Positions 3,715 to 14,308 of a DNA stretch of 64,000 nucleotides are shown here, in pieces. Location of the stretch: assembly GCA_030583825.1 (NCBI GenBank), contig CP129477.1, forward strand, positions 247,252 through 311,251, in the 5' to 3' direction. Source of the DNA: Candidatus Dojkabacteria bacterium. GTDB lineage: Bacteria; Patescibacteriota; Dojkabacteria; GCA-002793355. The first letter of the stretch is position 1. Each line of letters opens with the position of its first letter. Made by a program: the position numbers and the translations under genes. The notes beneath the pieces were generated by a model that ran no database searches, was not told the origin of the DNA, and saw nothing but the letters and a program-made list of their open reading frames with translations.

Positions 3715-4743
3715 TTACTGTGCGAGATATTCTTCAATAATCGTCTGGAATGCTGAAAATGGATATGCACCACCAATGAATTTTCCTTTTACAGTACCGT
3801 CACTCTGGAGTTTTCCAATAACAAATCCTGGTGTTCCAATGCCACCCATTCCGTTTGCCTGCAACCATGCTGCAAGATTCCCCTGCAATTCAGTTACATC
3901 CTGCACGTCTTCTGCAACGACATTTTGTGTTTCTTTATTCTGAGCACATGAGTTTACTCGTCCGACATCAACTCCTGCTTGAGCAATAATTGAGTTCATA
4001 ACGGTAACATCGAAATCAAGACCGCTTGCTCCAGATTTCTGAAGCTTATCAAGCTGTGCAAATACTTGGTCATGGAAAATCTTATACGCAGAAAATCCTC
4101 CAATTTGGCGAACACATTCTGCACGAAGTGCTGTTTCTGTCGCTGCTGGCTCGTGAATAGACAATGGAAGGTTTTTATACACAAATGCGACCTGACCGTT
4201 ATTAATGTAGTTTGTCTGGATTGATTCATATGTTGCCGTTTCGGTCTTTTGGCCAGTCTGTACGTTAATTCCTGTAGCAAACTGTCGGCAGAATACACAC
4301 ATAAAGTCTGTTAATTCAACGATAACGACTTTTGCTTTATTTAAATCTCCCAATACAGCGCGATCTCGAACACGAATAACTGTTTCAGGAAATTGCTCTC
4401 CCGCCAATGCAGGATCTACAGTTCCGGTTCCTACTGCAGTACCTGTTTTTGCTCCCTGTGCTTTTAAGCCAAAGTACAATCCTCCACCGATACCGACGGC
4501 AAGAATCACTGCTGCAACAATAATTGCAACGGGTGTTGTTAAGGCAATTTGTGGAACTTTGATTGTAATATAGTCACCACCTGCTTTTGCCGACTTTGTA
4601 GTCGAAGAAACTGATTCTGCTGAGGCTTCTACAGCTTTTCGCTTTACAGCGGATGTTTCAGTGGCGTTTTTCTTGCTCACTGCGGAATTTTCTGATTCTT
4701 TCACTGACGGAATTGTAAAGTTATATTTTTTGTACTGTACCAA
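3715..4743 (-). CDS. DsbA-like thiol:disulfide oxidoreductase with an N-terminal membrane anchor
   Basis: A thioredoxin-fold CxxC motif (FMCVFCRQF) and one TM helix near residue 70. Confidence 0.7.
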   Translation of the reverse strand: MVQYKKYNFTIPSVKESENSAVSKKNATETSAVKRKAVEASAESVSSTTKSAKAGGDYITIKVPQIALTTPVAIIVAAVILAVGIGGGLYFGLKAQGAKTGTAVGTGTVDPALAGEQFPETVIRVRDRAVLGDLNKAKVVIVELTDFMCVFCRQFATGINVQTGQKTETATYESIQTNYINNGQVAFVYKNLPLSIHEPAATETALRAECVRQIGGFSAYKIFHDQVFAQLDKLQKSGASGLDFDVTVMNSIIAQAGVDVGRVNSCAQNKETQNVVAEDVQDVTELQGNLAAWLQANGMGGIGTPGFVIGKLQSDGTVKGKFIGGAYPFSAFQTIIEEYLAQ

Positions 4744-6960: not shown

Positions 6961-7033
6961 GGTGGCTGTAGCTCAGGGGTAGAGCACCTGTCTGTGGAAC
7001 AGGATGTCGTGGGTTCGAAACCCATCAGCCACC
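6961..7033 (+). tRNA. tRNA-His (anticodon GTG) with a genome-encoded G-1
   Basis: Cloverleaf folded by hand. Acceptor GTGGCTG/CAGCCAC, with an extra 5' G pairing discriminator C73. D stem GCTC/GAGC. Anticodon stem CCTGT/ACAGG with loop CTGTGGA (U33, anticodon GUG). T arm GTGGG-TTCGAAA-CCCAT. CCA is not fully encoded. Confidence 0.85.
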
Positions 7034-7386
7034 CATTTTGGGATTTTTAGACAACAAAATTGTCATTTCTTCTTTACTGGTCGGTATTTTCTGAGGTTCT
7101 AAGGTTTGTATAGCCTTCTCAAATTTAGGTTTTGCTTTCTTAATTATTTCAAGCGGTTTATCAACTTCTATTTGAATTTGTAAATCCTTAATAACAATAT
7201 TTGCTCCAAGTTGTAACAGTATCTCATTCTTAATAGGTAAATCTCCCTTTTCAAATCTGTCTTTAGCTTCTTTTGCAAACTTAAATGACTTCTTAGCTTT
7301 CTCAGTCCATTCTGAATCGTCAGCTTCTTACTAACTTTATCCAATTTGTCTTTTTGTTGTTCAGCTTTAACCTTCTTAACACTCAT
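7025..7386 (-). pseudogene. Frameshifted small gene relic. A Lys/Glu-rich helical protein of about 125 aa if one frameshift is repaired.
   Basis: The ATG frame (MSVKKVKAEQQKDKLDKVSKKL) continues in another frame (ADDSEWTEKAKKSFKFAKEAKDRFEKGDLPIKNEILLQLGANIVIKDLQIQIEVDKPLEIIKK...) that has no start of its own. The stop codon lies inside the tRNA-His 3' end. Confidence 0.35.
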
Positions 7387-7411
7387 ATTTATACTTATAT
7401 ATTTTTTACAA

Positions 7412-10400
7412 TTATTGTGATTTTTCTATAATTGCTATCTCCTCGGGTGTTAGTTCATAAATCTTATAAACTCTTTGGTCAATTTGCTTACCTAAATTAC
7501 TAATTTGACTCTGTAAATTCCTCAATTCATTCTGTTTTGACTTAAACCAATTGAAAAGTTCTTCTGTCTTATCAAGTGTCATTTTTATTTTCTTTTGTTC
7601 TATAATCTCAACCAATTCATTCCAACCCATATCAATCAATTCACCTTTGATGGAAAACTTCCCATCAAAATGTAAATAGTTATTAAGAAACGATAATGAT
7701 TGAATATTTAACCCCTCATACAGCTCAATAGCTTTTTCTATTTGTTTATAAAGTAATGCTAAGTCTTGCTGTATATCTTTTGTAGGAATATTTATAGGTA
7801 TCTTTGAAAGGTTAACACTTTTGACCTCTGGGAAGACTCTTCCTTTTTCAGGAACTAAAAATCTATAAACAAAACCTATCAAGGTTGAATTTAATATTGT
7901 GGCTAATGATTCTAGGCTGATGCCTTCAGTTTTTAGGGTTAAATTATAAACATTGTTTAAGTTTAATCTACCTTGTACATCTACGGCACAAATAATCCTA
8001 TCCGCTGTTTGTCTAATTACTATCTTTTTCTGAGAGAAATCAAGGGAATTTCTCGGTTCAGCAAGCCATTCACCATAAGCAAGCCATCTACTGGAATCAG
8101 ATATGAAAAACTGCTTAATATCTCCGCCAATTATATACTTTTGGTAAGAGTCATCTTTTTTATCAATCCCATCGTAAATTCTCTTTCTTACAATGTCCTC
8201 ATCTTGAGCTGGTTTACCTTTTCCTTTCTGGTAGGGTTTTATTCCTACTGTTGGCTTTGCGACTTCATCTAATCTAACTGCTTTTGAAAAAATTTTATCA
8301 ATTATCTTTATTGAATTTTCATCATAGTCTAGATTAAACCCATTTGATATATTTTTCCTCCATGTATCCGAATTAGCTATACTTCTTTCTTGATTTATAA
8401 ATGATTCTAATTGTTTAATACTTCTAGTCTGTATTTCATAATGTTTTATAACTGATGACTTTTGACATACAAGAATTGATGTTTCTGCTGTTACTTCTTG
8501 AAATGCTTGATATTTTAGTAACTCAACTATAATAAGCTTGTTTTCAAGTAGAAGTTGTCGGATTTTTTCAAAATAGTGCATTGCAAGCCATGTTGAGGGA
8601 ACTATGAAACCAATGTATCCATTCTCCTTCACTAACATTAGTGACTTCTCAATGAATGCTATGTATGTTTCAAATTGATACTCTGTATGTTTATAATTCT
8701 CAGATATATACTTCTTCTCATTTGGTTTTAATTCAGCTCCCCATGGAGGGTTTCCAATAATTACATCAAACCCGCCGTCCTGCATAATATCCTTAAATTC
8801 AGCATTCCAGTTGAAAGCCTTGTTACCAGCAATTTCAGGGTCATCAATTAGTGAGTTACCACACTTAATATTCTTATCTAAATTCTGCAAAGGCTCACTG
8901 CTTCTAGCTGTCTTTAACCATAGTGCTAACTTAGTTATTTCAACACTTTCTTGATTCAGGTCAACACCGTATAGATTATTCAAAAGAATAGATTTATTGT
9001 TTTCAGCAGGGTTATAGTCAAAGAGGGTTTGTGACTCTCCTTTTGCCTGTTTCTCCGCAATTAAAGCGTCATACCTTGCTTTATACTCGTTTCTAAGAAA
9101 TGAATGGGCTTGATTTAAGAAAGCACCGCTACCACAAGCAGGGTCAAGTATCTTAATTGTGCTTAATTTGTCAGGGTATTCTTCTAAATATTTGCCTACA
9201 GTATTTTCTACAATGTATCGGGTTATGTATTCAGGAGTGTAGAATATCCCATCCTTTTTTCTTCTACCTTTCTTTTCAACTGATTTATCTACAGTTCCAA
9301 TAACAACTTTATCTCCTGATTCTGTAAGCAAGTTCCCACCTTGTTCAAGCTCAAGATGGATATTCTCTTTAATAGTCTCTAAATCGCTAATACTTTGCTC
9401 AAAAATATGACCTAAAATGTTTACATTCAAATCGGTTTCAAAGTCATACTCTGCAAGGTGCATTAAATGACTCCAAAAATCATCTTTAATTGATAGATTA
9501 TCCAGTAAATCATCAAAGGCAAATAACCCTCCATTGTAAGCATTTATAGGCGGTTTAACTCTGTTGTTTCCTTTATCAATTGCAATGAATAAACCCTTAA
9601 ATTCAGTCCATACTCTTTCGTCACTTGGAGAAAGTGAATTGATGGCTCTATCGTAGGTATTCTTAACGATATTTAGGGGGAGTAACGAGCTTGTATCTTC
9701 ACAAAACAAAGTGAATATAAATCTATCAAGTAACTTCTGGGTTTTCTCAAGTAATAATACTTTGTTTACAGTTGGGTTGTTTTGAGATAAATGATTAAGC
9801 AATCCCAAACGAACCTCTTTATATTCAGAATAGAACTTTTTAGTGATGTCTTGTTCTGCCTCAGTCGTGTCTTTGGCTAAAACATCAATAATGCTTTCCT
9901 TCTCTTTAGATATAAGGTTTTCTTGTGAGAGTAGGAAATAAAATCTTTTTAGTTCGTTTTCTTGAATTAAATCAATAACATCAAATTTTTCATAATACTC
10001 TTGAGTTTTATGCTTGTTATAAAGTCTAATCTCTTTGAAATTTGAAACTATAATCCAATTACAACCATCGTATTTAGTAGCGTATAAATAAGCCTGTTCA
10101 ATTGGTGTTAGCTTCTCAGAACCTCTATTTTGCCTTTTATCAAGCTGAGTTTTTGCATCTTTTAACTCAATTACCGCTTTAGTTAATTTTGTTTCTTTAC
10201 TAAACCAACCTAAGCTACCATCAGGCTCTTTACTATCGTTTTCAATTCTAGGGTGCTGTATGAGGGTCCATTCTTCATTCCCTGTGGTTACATCGCTATA
10301 ACCTAAAATAGCCTCAAAAAAGGTGCTTAAAAACTTCCCTTGCACACTTTTTTCCTTTGTCTTTTCAAGGTCACTATCTTTAAGGGCTTTTTGCCAACCT

Positions 10401-10495
10401 TCAAGAAGTTTCTTTGCAATTTCTAGCCTTTCAGCGTTAGGAAACTCAAAAGAGTGCATCTTTTGCTGTAGTAGCTTTTTGTTTATTAAATTCAT
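7412..10495 (-). CDS. Type IIG restriction-modification enzyme (MmeI/Eco57I-like): a fused PD-(D/E)xK endonuclease, gamma-class N6-adenine methyltransferase and target-recognition domain.
   Basis: The N-terminal nuclease motif EPDGSLGW...IELKDAK. MTase motif I (ILDPACGSGAFL) and motif IV (IIGNPPWG). A C-terminal TaqI-like specificity region. 1027 aa. Confidence 0.75.
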   Translation of the reverse strand: MNLINKKLLQQKMHSFEFPNAERLEIAKKLLEGWQKALKDSDLEKTKEKSVQGKFLSTFFEAILGYSDVTTGNEEWTLIQHPRIENDSKEPDGSLGWFSKETKLTKAVIELKDAKTQLDKRQNRGSEKLTPIEQAYLYATKYDGCNWIIVSNFKEIRLYNKHKTQEYYEKFDVIDLIQENELKRFYFLLSQENLISKEKESIIDVLAKDTTEAEQDITKKFYSEYKEVRLGLLNHLSQNNPTVNKVLLLEKTQKLLDRFIFTLFCEDTSSLLPLNIVKNTYDRAINSLSPSDERVWTEFKGLFIAIDKGNNRVKPPINAYNGGLFAFDDLLDNLSIKDDFWSHLMHLAEYDFETDLNVNILGHIFEQSISDLETIKENIHLELEQGGNLLTESGDKVVIGTVDKSVEKKGRRKKDGIFYTPEYITRYIVENTVGKYLEEYPDKLSTIKILDPACGSGAFLNQAHSFLRNEYKARYDALIAEKQAKGESQTLFDYNPAENNKSILLNNLYGVDLNQESVEITKLALWLKTARSSEPLQNLDKNIKCGNSLIDDPEIAGNKAFNWNAEFKDIMQDGGFDVIIGNPPWGAELKPNEKKYISENYKHTEYQFETYIAFIEKSLMLVKENGYIGFIVPSTWLAMHYFEKIRQLLLENKLIIVELLKYQAFQEVTAETSILVCQKSSVIKHYEIQTRSIKQLESFINQERSIANSDTWRKNISNGFNLDYDENSIKIIDKIFSKAVRLDEVAKPTVGIKPYQKGKGKPAQDEDIVRKRIYDGIDKKDDSYQKYIIGGDIKQFFISDSSRWLAYGEWLAEPRNSLDFSQKKIVIRQTADRIICAVDVQGRLNLNNVYNLTLKTEGISLESLATILNSTLIGFVYRFLVPEKGRVFPEVKSVNLSKIPINIPTKDIQQDLALLYKQIEKAIELYEGLNIQSLSFLNNYLHFDGKFSIKGELIDMGWNELVEIIEQKKIKMTLDKTEELFNWFKSKQNELRNLQSQISNLGKQIDQRVYKIYELTPEEIAIIEKSQ

Positions 10496-10517
10496 GTTCT
10501 AATCCTTATATTTATTG

Positions 10518-12269
10518 TTAAATACTCTCAAAGTAATTCCTTATACTTTGTGATAATAGCTTTTTTCTTTGAGTTAAAAATTCTGAATAGTTTAACTCGT
10601 AAAACTTATACGGTAGGGCATGATTCTTTAATACAGTTTCTAAATCAGTCCTACTGTATTGTTCAAATTCCTTAAAGTAATCCATTGGTGAGTTATCAGA
10701 AATTACAATGTTTGTTTTGTAGTCAAGATAAAGATAGTTCGCTACTTGATTCTGTTCTGTCTGTTCAACAATACCGATACCATTCAAATAATTCTTTGGG
10801 AATATATGGTGTTTATCCAAGCGAGCTTTCTTAACTGTAATTACAGGGTCAAACAGGTCTGATATTTTCTTAGTAGAAAATAGTAGGTCGACATTATTTC
10901 TAATCTGTGAAGCTATAAATACCAGCCATTGAGGATTCTTTGAATAAGATGATGTCAGCAATGCAGGCATCGTAATTTCCCAAAAGTCATTTGTTATTTC
11001 TGATTGTATTCTGCTATCCAATAGAGAAATAAACTCATCACCATTTTTTGCGTTTCTAATTAAAGCTAAATCGCTTTCAAAGTAGCTTTCTGATGAACCT
11101 GAATATCTTGATTTTAATGCTGACATTAAAAACCATCTTGAAACTATTCTTTCAAGCTTATGAAATTCAATATTAAACCTGTATTTGCCAATTAAGTAGA
11201 AGGCGTAAGAATAGAAGAAATTTGTTCTTGAGGTAATTAAATCACTATGCTTAAACCCTAACGACTGAATAAGATTTATATAATCGTGCCAAGTAGTATT
11301 ATCAAGTCCATTGGAGACATACTCTTCAAGCTCATTAAATCGCTTTTGTTTTAGTTCTTCAATAAATTCTCTTGTTTCAAAATCTCTACCTCGTAGAAGC
11401 GAGTAAACATCGCTCATTCTACCTCTGTTAAAACCATATCCAACTATAGCTCTAAGTATTTCTCCTGGTTTAACATCAATGAGATGATTAAATGATGAGT
11501 ACTGTAAACCCTGAGAATTTGGATTATTGCTTTGCATTGAGAAGTCCTCAATCTTCTTGCGTCCACTTTCCCAAAATACAGATAATAGGGTCAAAACAAA
11601 ATCAGATTGTTTTAGTACAACTCCTTTGCTGTTCACCCGAACAAAGATACTAGCAACCGTTTCTTCATCAACATTTTCTGCTATCTCTAAAATCGTAAAA
11701 TCATAAGACAGAATTGACCTTAAATGTGTAATGTTTTGAGAGATTATTTCTTCTTGTTCTTGTGTAGTGTCCTTATTAGCTTTTAACCTTTGAATAAACT
11801 CATTTATAAAGCGATACTCGCTAAAATCATTTTGAAACAAAAGGCTAATATCTGTAATGTATTCAACATCTCTATCAGTTGCGACATTGGAAACTTCAAA
11901 CTTCTCTAATAATGGATTAAAAGCTATTTTAATACGCTTTTCTTTATAATTTGCATCAATAATCGGAATCCCTTTTATTGTGGCAAATAGAGCGGTAAGT
12001 CTTTGTTGACCATCAATAATCAAGCTTTTTGCGTTACTTTCCTTTTTATCAGTGCCAATATCTTTTCTGTTATTGTCATTCACGTTCTCCCAAAAGAGAA
12101 GATAACCAACGGGATAACCTCTATAGATTGAGTCAAACAAATCTCTAACCTTGGTTGTATCCCACACGAAAGGACGTTGAATATCAGGTAAGGCTATCTT
12201 ACCGTGGTCAATATCGTTTATCAGTGTTTGAATCGGATATTGCGTAGTCTTAAAAATTGTTTTACTCAT
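10518..12269 (-). CDS. GmrSD-family type IV (modification-dependent) restriction endonuclease-like protein with DUF262 and DUF1524 domains
   Basis: DUF262 motifs (IQRPFVWD, IIDGQQRLTALF) and the DUF1524 His-Me finger (DKHHIFPKNYL). It lies 22 bp upstream of the type IIG gene on the same strand. Confidence 0.75.
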   Translation of the reverse strand: MSKTIFKTTQYPIQTLINDIDHGKIALPDIQRPFVWDTTKVRDLFDSIYRGYPVGYLLFWENVNDNNRKDIGTDKKESNAKSLIIDGQQRLTALFATIKGIPIIDANYKEKRIKIAFNPLLEKFEVSNVATDRDVEYITDISLLFQNDFSEYRFINEFIQRLKANKDTTQEQEEIISQNITHLRSILSYDFTILEIAENVDEETVASIFVRVNSKGVVLKQSDFVLTLLSVFWESGRKKIEDFSMQSNNPNSQGLQYSSFNHLIDVKPGEILRAIVGYGFNRGRMSDVYSLLRGRDFETREFIEELKQKRFNELEEYVSNGLDNTTWHDYINLIQSLGFKHSDLITSRTNFFYSYAFYLIGKYRFNIEFHKLERIVSRWFLMSALKSRYSGSSESYFESDLALIRNAKNGDEFISLLDSRIQSEITNDFWEITMPALLTSSYSKNPQWLVFIASQIRNNVDLLFSTKKISDLFDPVITVKKARLDKHHIFPKNYLNGIGIVEQTEQNQVANYLYLDYKTNIVISDNSPMDYFKEFEQYSRTDLETVLKNHALPYKFYELNYSEFLTQRKKLLSQSIRNYFESI

Positions 12270-12303
12270 AGTGTCTTATACTTATTTTGGTTCTAATTAG
12301 TTA

Positions 12304-12477
12304 CTATACCTTTGATTTTTCAATCAAAGCTTCAATATCTGATTTTTTAATCATATATTTTTTCCCAACTCTAAAGGCTTTAAGCTTTCCCTGTTTAATC
12401 CAACGGTAAATAGTCATATAAACGACTTTCAGCATTTCCGCCACTTCCTCAATTGTGTAGTATTTTTCTTCTTCCAT
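12304..12477 (-). CDS. Excisionase/AlpA-family helix-turn-helix DNA-binding protein (57 aa). Not in the ORF track.
   Basis: Manual translation gives MEEEKYYTIEEVAEMLKVVYMTIYRWIKQGKLKAFRVGKKYMIKKSDIEALIEKSKV. The pattern is the classic Xis/MerR-superfamily HTH. It lies 34 bp upstream of the DUF262 gene on the same strand. Confidence 0.65.
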   Translation of the reverse strand: MEEEKYYTIEEVAEMLKVVYMTIYRWIKQGKLKAFRVGKKYMIKKSDIEALIEKSKV

Positions 12478-12562
12478 TATTTATATTGTTTTGATTTGTT
12501 TAACATTATTTTACTTTTCAAGTATAATTCATTGTAAATAAAAATTAAAGATAAGTATAAAT

Positions 12563-13369
12563 ATGAGAAAAATATCTGAATTTATAACTAGTCCACTGGT
12601 GTTCAAAATCCTCATTGTATTAGTAATTATCCTAGCAGTAATAGCCTCTATATTCATTTATGAAAATCCAATTCATCCCTTAACTAGTCTGCTCAATTCA
12701 AACTATTTTGTCGCTTTAGTAACTGGTATTGCTGGAGCTGTAGCATTTTTAATATATTTTAAGCAGAAAGCTGACACTAAGCGTGATGCGGCTAAAACTA
12801 TCCTTGCTGAAATTACTAATTCAGAAAAAACAATCCAAGAAGTTAAGAATATTAAGAAGTTCTCAGGATATATGAATTTAGACCCTGACCCTTTGAAGTT
12901 TTACTTAGGCAATTTTAGCTGGAATCAGTATAAGTACCTTTTTATTGGAGATTTTGATTCGTACGAGTGGGAAAAGATAAACCAATATTTCTCACAGTGT
13001 GGTACTTTCAATGAAGCCATCAAAAATATTGCTAATTTATTGCCACAAAACATTGAATATAGGATGCAATTTCTTCAACAAGAACTAGCCAAAATAGCAA
13101 GTGAACAAGCAGATGAGGTAGCAAAACTTGAGAAACCTGATGGCAAAAATGATAAAACAAGACAAGAAAAAATCAAAGAGATAAGTGAAAAGTATGAGCA
13201 AAAGGGTAAGGATTTTGTTTTTGGATATATAGAAGCAGAAAAGACATCTCTAAAGTATGTGTATACACCTGCCAATGCATATGAACCATTGAATAGGGAA
13301 CTTGATAAAATTGATACTGAAATTAGTAAATCAAGTATTGGGAAAAAACTAGTTAAATTAGCTCGCTAG
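12563..13369 (+). CDS. Membrane protein with two N-terminal TM helices and a C-terminal coiled-coil domain. Unknown function.
   Basis: TM1 near residues 12-33 and TM2 near 49-67, followed by a charged helical region (QFLQQELAKIASEQADEVAKLEK...). It is transcribed divergently from the HTH-GmrSD-IIG operon and has its own TATAAT box. Confidence 0.5.
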   Translation: MRKISEFITSPLVFKILIVLVIILAVIASIFIYENPIHPLTSLLNSNYFVALVTGIAGAVAFLIYFKQKADTKRDAAKTILAEITNSEKTIQEVKNIKKFSGYMNLDPDPLKFYLGNFSWNQYKYLFIGDFDSYEWEKINQYFSQCGTFNEAIKNIANLLPQNIEYRMQFLQQELAKIASEQADEVAKLEKPDGKNDKTRQEKIKEISEKYEQKGKDFVFGYIEAEKTSLKYVYTPANAYEPLNRELDKIDTEISKSSIGKKLVKLAR

Positions 13370-13425
13370 ATTAAGGTAGTGGGTCATCATTGCGTTTCTA
13401 ATTTCACGCCACAATCCACCCCAAT

Positions 13426-13804
13426 TTAGTCTTTCTGCCGATTGAATATACTATCAAAGGGTTTCATTAGGGAATATTGGAGCATTCCATCTCTCAAAAA
13501 GAGGTTCTGACGTGTCAGTTTTATAATCTCTCTTTTTTCATCATGTTCAGAACCTAGAAAAAGCTCATACGAACGTGAAGCGAGCTCTAATAGCGTAGAT
13601 GCCGTTATATAATAGTCTTCATCTGCTTGCTCTAAGCGAGAAAGCTTATCTCTAAAATCCTGTTGTTCTGCTCTATATTTTTTATTAAATTTGTCATATT
13701 CTTCCTGAGTAATCCCCTATAAAACGTGCAAGTTCATGCCCACTGGCTTCAGTTTTTTCAACTATATAATCAAGAATTTTTCCAGATGTCTTTTCAATAG
13801 CCAT
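13426..13804 (-). pseudogene. Frameshifted gene relic. It encodes an HTH-like N-terminus plus a coiled-coil domain, about 125 aa if repaired.
   Basis: Frame 1 reads MAIEKTSGKILDYIVEKTEASGHELARFIGDYSGRI*. The continuation in another frame reads TQEEYDKFNKKYRAEQQDFRDKLSRLEQADEDYYITASTLLELASRSYELFLGSEHDEKREIIKLTRQNLFLRDGMLQYSLMKPFD. A single indel is implied. Confidence 0.35.
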
Positions 13805-13963
13805 AAGTAATTGTAGCAAATAAAGTTCCTAGTTAATTAGGAACCATACGGTGAATTCATTTTTTATTAAGATAGTATTAGTTCTTTGCATTTCTTAAAA
13901 ATTTTATTTAATATTCTTAACACATACAAAAAATAATTAACCTCAAACGCATTACTTCATTAA

Positions 13964-14308
13964 ATGAAAGACTACTCAAAATATCTGAATAATAAATCTC
14001 CAGACGTTGCTTATATTTTGAATGAGCTTTTTGTAATTCTTGATAAGATTACAGCTAAAGACTACGAAGTAGAGGAAAAGCAAACCTCGCTGCATATCGT
14101 AAAAAGCTCTGCTTTTCTCGGTGTTCATTTTCTCAAAGACAAACTACGATTAAATATAGTGCTTAACCACGTAGCTACCTCGGATAAATTGCATAAATCT
14201 GAGCAGGTCTCTAAAAACCGATTTCATAACGAAATTGACTTGAGAACAGTCAAAGATTTATCTGATATAGAGATGCTCATTAAAGAAGCATATTTTCTAA
14301 AGACTTAG
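13964..14308 (+). CDS. Hypothetical protein (114 aa). Faint resemblance to a DUF5655-type small domain.
   Basis: ORF with normal composition. The family assignment is from memory only and weak. Confidence 0.4.
   Translation: MKDYSKYLNNKSPDVAYILNELFVILDKITAKDYEVEEKQTSLHIVKSSAFLGVHFLKDKLRLNIVLNHVATSDKLHKSEQVSKNRFHNEIDLRTVKDLSDIEMLIKEAYFLKT

Follow-up and report, generated by a model that had tools for sequence, protein, structure and literature searches.

A two-helix membrane protein gene at the att-proximal end of tRNA-His-targeting serine recombinase islands in Patescibacteria: a putative stand-alone exclusion or abortive-infection factor

Proteins of the Sie2009 type, which are found in lactococcal P335 prophages and include Orf2/3 of phage TP901-1, are encoded between the integrase and the regulator and are described as 'small' (PMC7693887). 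TP901-1 is listed among the phages with a serine integrase, and small basic recombination directionality factors (RDFs) are known for the large serine recombinases (LSRs) of phiRv1 and TP901-1 (PMC1470463). In LSR defence islands such as the SCCmec-associated cassettes and in other tRNA-targeting islands, fixed recombinase and attachment (att) ends are combined with exchangeable anti-phage cargo, and elements accrete in tandem at a single site (PMC11470126, PMC11551731). The present analysis concerns a gene for a membrane protein with two transmembrane (TM) helices, termed the 2-TM gene, at positions 12563–13369 of a 64,000-nt stretch of Candidatus Dojkabacteria DNA (assembly GCA_030583825.1, contig CP129477.1, positions 247,252 to 311,251 of the forward strand; hereafter the window), and the small integrative element in which this gene resides. 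Its host belongs to the Patescibacteria, also known as the Candidate Phyla Radiation (CPR), whose genomes are tiny and in which few defence systems or mobile elements have been recognised.

Judged by comparison of homologous loci, the 2-TM gene represents the terminal gene of a cassette that forms one end of small LSR-mobilised integrative elements in Patescibacteria. These elements are inserted at the 3' end of tRNA-His and carry interchangeable nuclease or restriction cargo between the recombinase end and the gene for an HTH_17 protein. As a whole, the explanation preferred here, namely that this end gene of a cassette in an LSR island encodes a stand-alone exclusion or abortive-infection (Abi) membrane protein, as suggested by position and context, has in our estimate an even chance of being correct. 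The island itself is of a known kind, i.e. a recombinase-bounded integrative element that sits at a tRNA gene and carries defence cargo, and the island family displays the features of LSR integrative elements: an LSR gene, conserved ends, and insertion at a specific site via short att sites. Unlike the described islands, the window element targets tRNA-His, occurs in the phylum Patescibacteria and has a minimal backbone of LSR, HTH_17 and 2-TM genes, which includes a conserved membrane protein. Sie-type proteins are probably the closest analogue of the 2-TM protein: as in the Sie2009 arrangement, the 2-TM gene is situated between integrase/att and regulator (circular order LSR, att, 2-TM, HTH_17) and outside the multi-gene defence operon, and its product is likewise a membrane protein (segments at residues 12–30 and 48–66). 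It differs from the Sie type in being larger (268 aa), in having two TM helices and a large domain predicted to be cytoplasmic, in its patescibacterial host and in being carried by an island of ~6 kb instead of a phage. Homology to Sie proteins was not detected, with no PHROG exclusion family matched and no match in the phage collection. In the literature searched, neither a relevant description of an LSR defence element in CPR bacteria nor an account of this tRNA-His/LSR platform was found; the membrane protein is without curated family or name in the libraries searched. The features of the locus are given below.

6962–7034, plus strand: tRNA-His (GTG), called by ARAGORN; integration target and left junction (attL), whose 3' end ...GCCACCCA holds the crossover core.
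6980–7312, minus strand: 3' remnant of an LSR gene, last ~105–111 codons (tblastn with the recombinase of locus L001).
7412–10495, minus strand: type IIG (MmeI/Eco57I-like) restriction-modification (RM) enzyme, 1027 aa, cargo (Pfam and PADLOC).
10518–12269, minus strand: GmrSD-family (DUF262) modified-DNA nuclease homologue, 583 aa, cargo (Pfam GmrSD_N 4.6e-32; PADLOC HEC-05 3.4e-40).
12304–12477, minus strand: HTH_17 (excisionase/MerR-type) protein, 57 aa (Pfam HTH_17 2.5e-19; NCBIfam 'excise' 3.6e-17; PADLOC mad1 6e-12).
12478–12562, no strand: divergent regulatory region (promoter scan and six-locus alignment).
12563–13369, plus strand: 2-TM gene, 268 aa, ATG start; the last gene of the element, pointing toward attR.
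13370–13423, no strand: element-derived att arm, ~55 bp, common to all loci and ending in the crossover core CCACCCCA (13416–13423), which matches the 3' end of tRNA-His; attR and right boundary of the element.
13424–13812, minus strand: C-terminal remnant of a second, different LSR, frameshifted and stop-containing (six-frame translation; tblastn with the L010 recombinase and an L005 fragment).

As delimited by its homologies, the window element spans approximately positions 7035–13423 (~6.4 kb), with the order tRNA-His/attL, LSR remnant, type IIG RM, GmrSD, divergent HTH_17 and 2-TM genes, attR. The tRNA-His gene at 6962–7034 marks the exact left edge of a low-GC block (GC 0.31–0.34 over 7001–14000, compared to ~0.39–0.44 in the left flanks and 0.36–0.39 in the 6 kb rightward), and the end of the att arm, (C)CACCCCA, is the same as the 3' end of tRNA-His. 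Long direct tRNA repeats as island ends were found neither in the window nor in the distant loci, and the boundary of the island was therefore taken from homology breakpoints; with serine recombinases, the absence of such repeats at the ends is expected. In blastn comparisons of the window with L010, L037 and L039, homology extends from 12295–12332, at the HTH stop codon, to 13423/13424 and ends there. Similarly, L001 and L003, which contain an identical 2-TM gene, share their sequence up to ...CCGACCCCAA and are unrelated past that point. The att sites of LSRs are typically shorter than 50 bp (PMC1470463). Homology of window DNA to other elements is restricted to 12295/12332–13423 and to 7028–7313, the latter being 71% identical to L001 4147–4432. 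The LSR remnant in this region (6980–7312) aligns with residues 446–556 of the L001 recombinase (64–65% identity, E 2e-32 to 2e-34), has stop codons upstream and is devoid of the catalytic N-terminal ~445 aa. Because the recombinase has been lost except for its 3' end, the window element constitutes an immobilised island, in which the HTH_17 gene, the 2-TM gene and the cargo are all intact. An earlier note on this DNA had placed the 2-TM gene inside a low-GC island, and this location is borne out by comparatively defined ends on both sides, tRNA-His/attL at 7034 and the attR core at 13416–13423.

A cassette of 1.13 kb, which comprises the HTH_17 gene, the promoter region, the 2-TM gene and the ~55-bp att arm, is present in every related locus and was found with at least five different cargo sets.

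Window: GmrSD and type IIG RM.
L001/L002: one HNH nuclease and unknowns.
L004/L005: PDC-S14 fragment, type III RM, PDC-S14.
L007–L009 and L011: two HNH nucleases.
L039: EcoRI endonuclease.
L037: shortened copy of the type IIG gene of the window.

Since the same cassette recurs with differing cargo, the 2-TM protein is part of the element backbone and not specific to any cargo, and this backbone membership means that it does not serve the GmrSD/type IIG genes as a dedicated effector. Apart from LSR, HTH_17 and 2-TM, no gene of the element is conserved. The left junction is formed by tRNA-His in three independent loci, i.e. the window, L001 and L005. An intact LSR, consisting of Resolvase, Recombinase and Zn_ribbon_recom domains, is encoded in L001, L004/5 and L010; in L001 and L005 the 3' end of its gene overlaps tRNA-His in antisense orientation, and the tail of the protein, ...WGGKWDSNPRPP..., is the translated T-arm. 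In L010, a short and linear contig, HTH_17, 2-TM, att and an LSR gene converging on the 2-TM gene follow each other in the order that would be expected of a circular form. In the integrated copies (L001 4090–4155; L005 2452–2517), the recombinase open reading frame (ORF) runs antisense through tRNA-His, and in L010 (1079–1110) it ends in the att arm beside the 2-TM gene (...NGVDCGEK). As the ends of the ORF differ between integrated and circular-order copies, integration would exchange the C-terminal tail of the LSR.

The HTH_17 gene heads the cargo operon and is transcribed divergently from the 2-TM gene, in keeping with the earlier description of the latter as divergent from the HTH_17-GmrSD-type IIG operon. 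The same divergent pairing, with an HTH_17 gene for 57–63 aa and a gap of ~82 bp, is found at every close locus with enough flank, and the HTH_17 proteins are 57–96% identical across loci. This protein is a candidate regulator and/or RDF, roles for which it is likelier than the 2-TM protein. As a partner of the entire family, HTH_17 was rejected: an HTH neighbour was present at 1 of 25 genome loci, and that locus belongs to the close subfamily. The promoter of the 2-TM gene is sigma-70-like with 11 of 12 matches and consists of the −35 element TTAACA (12500–12505), a 17-nt spacer and the −10 element TATAAT (12523–12528); promoter-like sites as such are no commoner in the scanned region than in shuffles (5 seen, 9.2 expected). 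The promoter at 12500–12528 is invariant in orthologous loci, though the proteins are just 44–70% identical. Alignment of six loci yields a mean identity of 77% for the intergenic region, with TTTA.CA.TAT.TTAC and GTATAAT being invariant, and the −35 element, the −10 element and the ATTATATTAC block between them do not vary across the close loci. Hence, the gene possesses a promoter of its own, as previously proposed, with the TATAAT box lying 2 nt to the left of the position (12525–12530) that had been given for it.

An ORF of 268 codons at 31% GC whose homologues are conserved over the full length goes well past what chance would yield, and the two N-terminal TM helices that had been postulated for its product are supported by both hydropathy and structure prediction. 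Kyte-Doolittle analysis with 19-residue windows revealed hydrophobic segments at ~12–30 (score 3.19) and 48–66 (score 2.14). The AlphaFold2 (AF2) model, computed with ten homologues, is helical throughout (mean pLDDT 77, pTM 0.54) and contains helices at residues 11–34, 47–100 (TM2 running into a stalk), 120–127, 133–159, 163–187, 197–224, 241–249 and 258–267. The loop between TM1 and TM2 is short and predicted to be external, and the helical C-terminal domain of ~200 aa is predicted to be cytoplasmic. This orientation follows from the positive-inside rule, because among 26 family members the mean number of K+R is 0.42 in the 15 residues preceding the conserved TM helix as opposed to 3.9 in the 15 residues following it; the 2-TM form is accordingly predicted to be N-in/C-in. 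The C-terminal domain had been described as a charged coiled coil. Its helical nature is retained in the model, but only residues ~161–225 form a charge-rich, variable stretch, whereas residues 101–160 are aromatic-rich and near-invariant in close homologues (..DP..FYLG.FSWNQYKYLFIGDFDSYEWEKIN.YF..).

Searches with the 268-aa protein returned no curated match in Pfam (SLATT and Abi families included), NCBIfam, PADLOC, PHROGs or PDB sequence profiles, and fold searches yielded generic helical matches only, with no solved fold alike. The lack of recognisable homology noted earlier therefore holds for these resources, but not for unannotated metagenomic proteins. One identical entry from a Candidatus Dojkabacteria metagenome-assembled genome (MAG) and nine full-length, unnamed relatives with 44–70% identity were obtained by an indexed protein search, and a second, profile-based search of the same database added only four further relatives. 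A profile search over 1.84 billion representatives retrieved 496 relatives at E<=1e-3, 219 of them at E<=1e-10, corresponding to a family of ~500 clusters at the 50% identity level; the relatives are annotated as 'hypothetical protein' throughout. Most of the relatives from this profile search comprise 200–250 aa, and their alignment starts at query position ~40, so the family core is composed of one TM helix and a helical domain of ~180 aa; the window subfamily has an additional N-terminal TM helix in front of this core. Genome matches fall chiefly into Patescibacteria (Saccharibacteria, Staskawicz-, Portnoy- and Moraniibacteria), with a few MAGs labelled proteobacterial and one isolate, Lysinibacillus zambalensis, in addition. 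No tblastn match was obtained in the phage and plasmid collections; IMG/VR yielded one locus.

Four motifs characterise the family: NSNFF..T....A...Y.KQK.D.K.DAA..IL.EI.NAE, SW.KYKYLF..DFD..EW..I..FY..C, Y.P.KP..DA and S.SS.G.KLK..A. Residues W120, P236 and G260 are invariant family-wide, and a small-residue face of TM2 (T54, G58, A61) is conserved, which suggests that the protein may oligomerise in the membrane via this face. Among the conserved residues there is no catalytic-looking constellation, and for this reason a non-enzymatic action, i.e. binding, blocking or pore formation, is expected.

The earlier note had considered SLATT or Abi membership and a partnership with the adjacent defence operon. 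Neither assignment was supported. Pfam SLATT_1-6 gave no match for the protein at E<=1 or for 30 diverse relatives at E<=0.01, and the Pfam families Abi_2, Abi_C, AbiEii and CAAX/Abi were matched neither by the protein nor by these relatives. In PADLOC, the sole match of the protein was capH (E 0.0026, on the charged helix), and the 30 relatives gave marginal matches to ZorA, LeoA and Mem_02 in one member each; no Pfam, PADLOC or PHROG family was found consistently among them, and no match to a housekeeping family emerged. The matches to DUF5493, capH and phrog_8321 were discarded as sub-threshold noise from TM or charged helices. Two N-terminal TM helices and a location in a defence island are shared with the SLATT/2-TM effectors of CBASS, retron and Pycsar-type systems. 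Unlike these, the 2-TM protein lacks a profile match, belongs to a family whose core is a single TM helix plus a large conserved helical domain, and has HTH_17, RM enzymes, nucleases and LSR as neighbours instead of a signal-generating partner (nucleotide-signal, reverse transcriptase/nucleotidyltransferase type). As for the defence operon, the recurrence of the cassette with at least five cargo sets argues against a partnership.

The distant relatives have no HTH partner, and their neighbour genes are heterogeneous. A tRNA or tmRNA gene lies within 1.3 kb at 9 of 24 distant loci (L012, L015, L017, L018, L019, L022, L023, L024 and L025), with the family gene on the 3' (insertion) side in all nine cases (one-sided binomial p ~0.002, calculated by hand); at eight of these nine the distance is within 1 kb (enrichment, Fisher p=0.017). 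In four of the tRNA/tmRNA-linked loci, the family gene begins 66–131 bp past the tRNA. In L012, a tRNA-Gln island with HerA-like cargo, the family gene and an LSR occupy opposite ends. L013 resembles a prophage and encodes a head maturation protease, and L036 is an inovirus-like contig with Zot and Rep. In L046, the family member adjoins ThsB_TIR. The sole isolate relative found (L035 5796–9853, Lysinibacillus zambalensis) is a full-length member in a prophage, encoded between tail-fibre-like genes and Phage_holin_4_1 plus M15 endolysin, directly upstream of the holin, the position of XhlA-type lysis accessory proteins in Bacillus prophages. What these loci have in common is that the family gene is an accessory one, located at the termini of mobile elements that are unrelated to each other.

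At four loci (L013 3212–4948, L027 6943–8582, L028 3518–5135 and L030 6–1736), a gene for a ClpP-like SDH protease of ~340 aa (PF01972) is located directly upstream of a 1-TM relative and translationally coupled to it, and at two further loci an SDH protease gene is near the family gene. DUF6941 follows downstream of the pair in L013 and L027. SDH protease and 1-TM relative represent a candidate two-gene system; the pair is not recognised by PADLOC, and the literature on PF01972 in defence yielded nothing relevant. Membrane proteins paired with proteases are also known from NfeD-stomatin and gasdermin-protease systems. This is an analogy only: the 1-TM relatives share the coupling to a protease, whereas the window element contains none, and homology of the family to the SPFH and gasdermin folds was not found.

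According to the preferred explanation, the 2-TM protein would be an element-borne accessory membrane protein of the 'moron' type, which is expressed from its own strong promoter once the element has integrated and works independently of the adjoining GmrSD and type IIG genes. Most likely, it would act on the inner face of the membrane to protect the cell that carries the element, whether via superinfection exclusion or as a membrane-anchored abortive-infection sensor/effector. Independence from the neighbours is deduced from the occurrence of the same cassette with unrelated cargo, and also from the distant relatives, of which some stand alone on the 3' side of a tRNA or tmRNA gene and others occur in prophages, an inovirus-like contig or operons with an SDH protease. 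Moreover, because the 2-TM gene is intact in the window and in L037 despite decay, its function would be independent of mobility, of cargo and, tentatively, of the HTH protein. In L037, an in-frame TAG (Y to stop) interrupts the HTH_17 gene (2280–2447) and only 69 codons are left of the type IIG gene, whereas neither the 2-TM ORF nor the att arm is damaged; these data come from one metagenomic contig, in which a sequencing error is possible. For a membrane-anchored backbone protein with a conserved promoter of its own, no tie to cargo and a large domain predicted to be cytoplasmic, an independent protective role at the membrane is plausible by analogy. Several points weigh against this assignment. 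The protein is not homologous to exclusion, Abi or effector families that have been characterised, so to speak of its function is to argue from position and context; its large domain is predicted to lie on the cytoplasmic side; the confidence of the AF2 model is moderate (pTM 0.54); the close subfamily encompasses only ~10 clusters; some distant members are located among housekeeping genes (FtsX, PBP1, Wzy); and the family is not a typical phage moron, given one relative in IMG/VR and none in the phage and plasmid collections. A broader version, in which the protein founds a family centred on Patescibacteria whose members are anchored in the membrane, have a cytoplasmic helical bundle and serve as self-contained anti-phage exclusion/Abi modules, fixed and att-proximal in LSR islands and gated by a coupled SDH protease in other lineages, is possible though doubtful. 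If true, the protease gating would amount to a protease-controlled membrane effector without gasdermin or SLATT homology.

Other explanations account for parts of these data. The 2-TM protein might be a membrane-damaging toxin within an addiction or stabilisation module, with its strong promoter repressed by HTH_17, such that loss of the island kills the segregant. The divergent HTH/2-TM pair indeed shares a highly conserved control region and has stayed intact in the window although two recombinases decayed, and the small-residue motif of TM2 fits oligomeric pores. On the other hand, the 2-TM ORF of L037 is intact beside an HTH gene with an in-frame stop (with the reservation that it is a single metagenomic contig), the many 1-TM relatives without HTH neighbour weigh against intrinsic toxicity, and the divergent layout is unlike the canonical co-directional toxin-antitoxin operon, all of which makes such a module unlikely. 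A role in the biology of the element itself, with the cytoplasmic domain partnering LSR and/or HTH_17 as a membrane-tethered RDF or as an excision sensor that sequesters the HTH protein, is considered quite unlikely. It would agree with the exclusive conservation of LSR, HTH_17 and 2-TM and with the circular order of L010, where the 2-TM gene abuts att and converges on LSR; in addition, RDFs of LSRs are structurally diverse, and two of the first described are small basic proteins (PMC1470463). However, the 2-TM gene is intact in the window where the recombinase is gone, a nearby LSR exists at just 2 of ~30 distant loci, and HTH_17 is the more conventional RDF candidate. To our knowledge, there is also no precedent for a membrane-anchored RDF.

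The Lysinibacillus prophage relative, which directly precedes a Phage_holin_4_1 holin and an M15 endolysin, and the architecture of N-terminal TM and charged C-terminal part might point to a holin-like or lysis-timing protein that makes the membrane permeable, either to let element DNA out or to bring about abortive lysis. Such a function has a slim prospect, considering that the island is without endolysin, that no Pfam or PHROGs holin family was matched ('lysis' PHROG matches reaching only E 0.1–0.49), that a strong promoter suits a lethal holin badly and that 268 aa exceed the expected size of a holin. The notion of a dedicated SLATT-/Abi-like membrane effector that acts together with the adjacent GmrSD/type IIG operon is disfavoured and very improbable: it draws on adjacency, divergent promoter and defence-island location, yet the cassette is also associated with type III RM plus PDC-S14, HNH nucleases, EcoRI and truncated cargo, 30 family members lack a SLATT, Abi or PADLOC effector match, and we know of no need of RM and GmrSD enzymes for membrane effectors. 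Hardly credible, finally, is an ordinary patescibacterial housekeeping envelope protein that resides in islands by chance. Concentration of the family in one phylum and the members adjoining FtsX, PBP1 or Wzy genes would be in line with it, but synteny is not conserved, placement at tRNA/tmRNA genes is systematically on the insertion side, members occur in prophages and LSR elements, and the window copy is inside precisely bounded mobile DNA.

The locus depicts a compact and exactly bounded serine-recombinase/tRNA-His platform that moves restriction and nuclease cargo among CPR genomes with one membrane protein always aboard. If this protein acts as an exclusion or Abi factor, as preferred here, it would constitute a new single-gene defence family in a phylum where such biology is barely explored; if it serves the element instead, a serine recombinase would have an unusual partner in it, one tethered to the membrane. 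Either way, the tempting annotation as effector of the neighbouring RM/GmrSD system is corrected, and exact att sites together with recombinase candidates are provided, which are testable in vitro.

Several observations concern the surroundings and cargo of the element. The type IIG enzyme matches Pfam Eco57I (1.4e-41), N6_Mtase, TaqI_C and MmeI_N/hel/Mtase as well as PADLOC REase_MTase_IIG (1.9e-106), and a 72-aa ORF at 7168–7386 was rejected as a gene, as it is out of frame inside the LSR remnant. Beyond attR, the remnant at 13424–13812 matches an unannotated phage contig across 89 aa (38% identity), and similar remnants follow attR elsewhere (L001 10814–11047, L003 1272–1574, L039 after 2808). 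We read it as the probable relic of an earlier tenant of the same tRNA-His site, which suggests that tRNA-His may have been occupied repeatedly in tandem, with all but the recombinase 3' end lost each time. Just past this second remnant, a gene for a DUF5655 protein (13964–14308, 114 aa, E 5e-9) may be part of the relic of the earlier island, because the low GC reaches ~14000. In L004, a 73-aa ORF (7047–7268) directly after the HTH gene and a 309-aa gene (1514–2443) at the far cargo end both match the N-terminal part of the PADLOC candidate PDC-S14, and this duplicated fragment flanks the type III RM genes. In L001, 22 nt of the 5' end of tRNA-His are repeated (3774–3795) ~300 bp upstream of the intact tRNA; over 3774–4155, this copy brackets an 87-aa GIY-YIG ORF (3838–4101), and the arrangement resembles a small insertion of its own at that tRNA.

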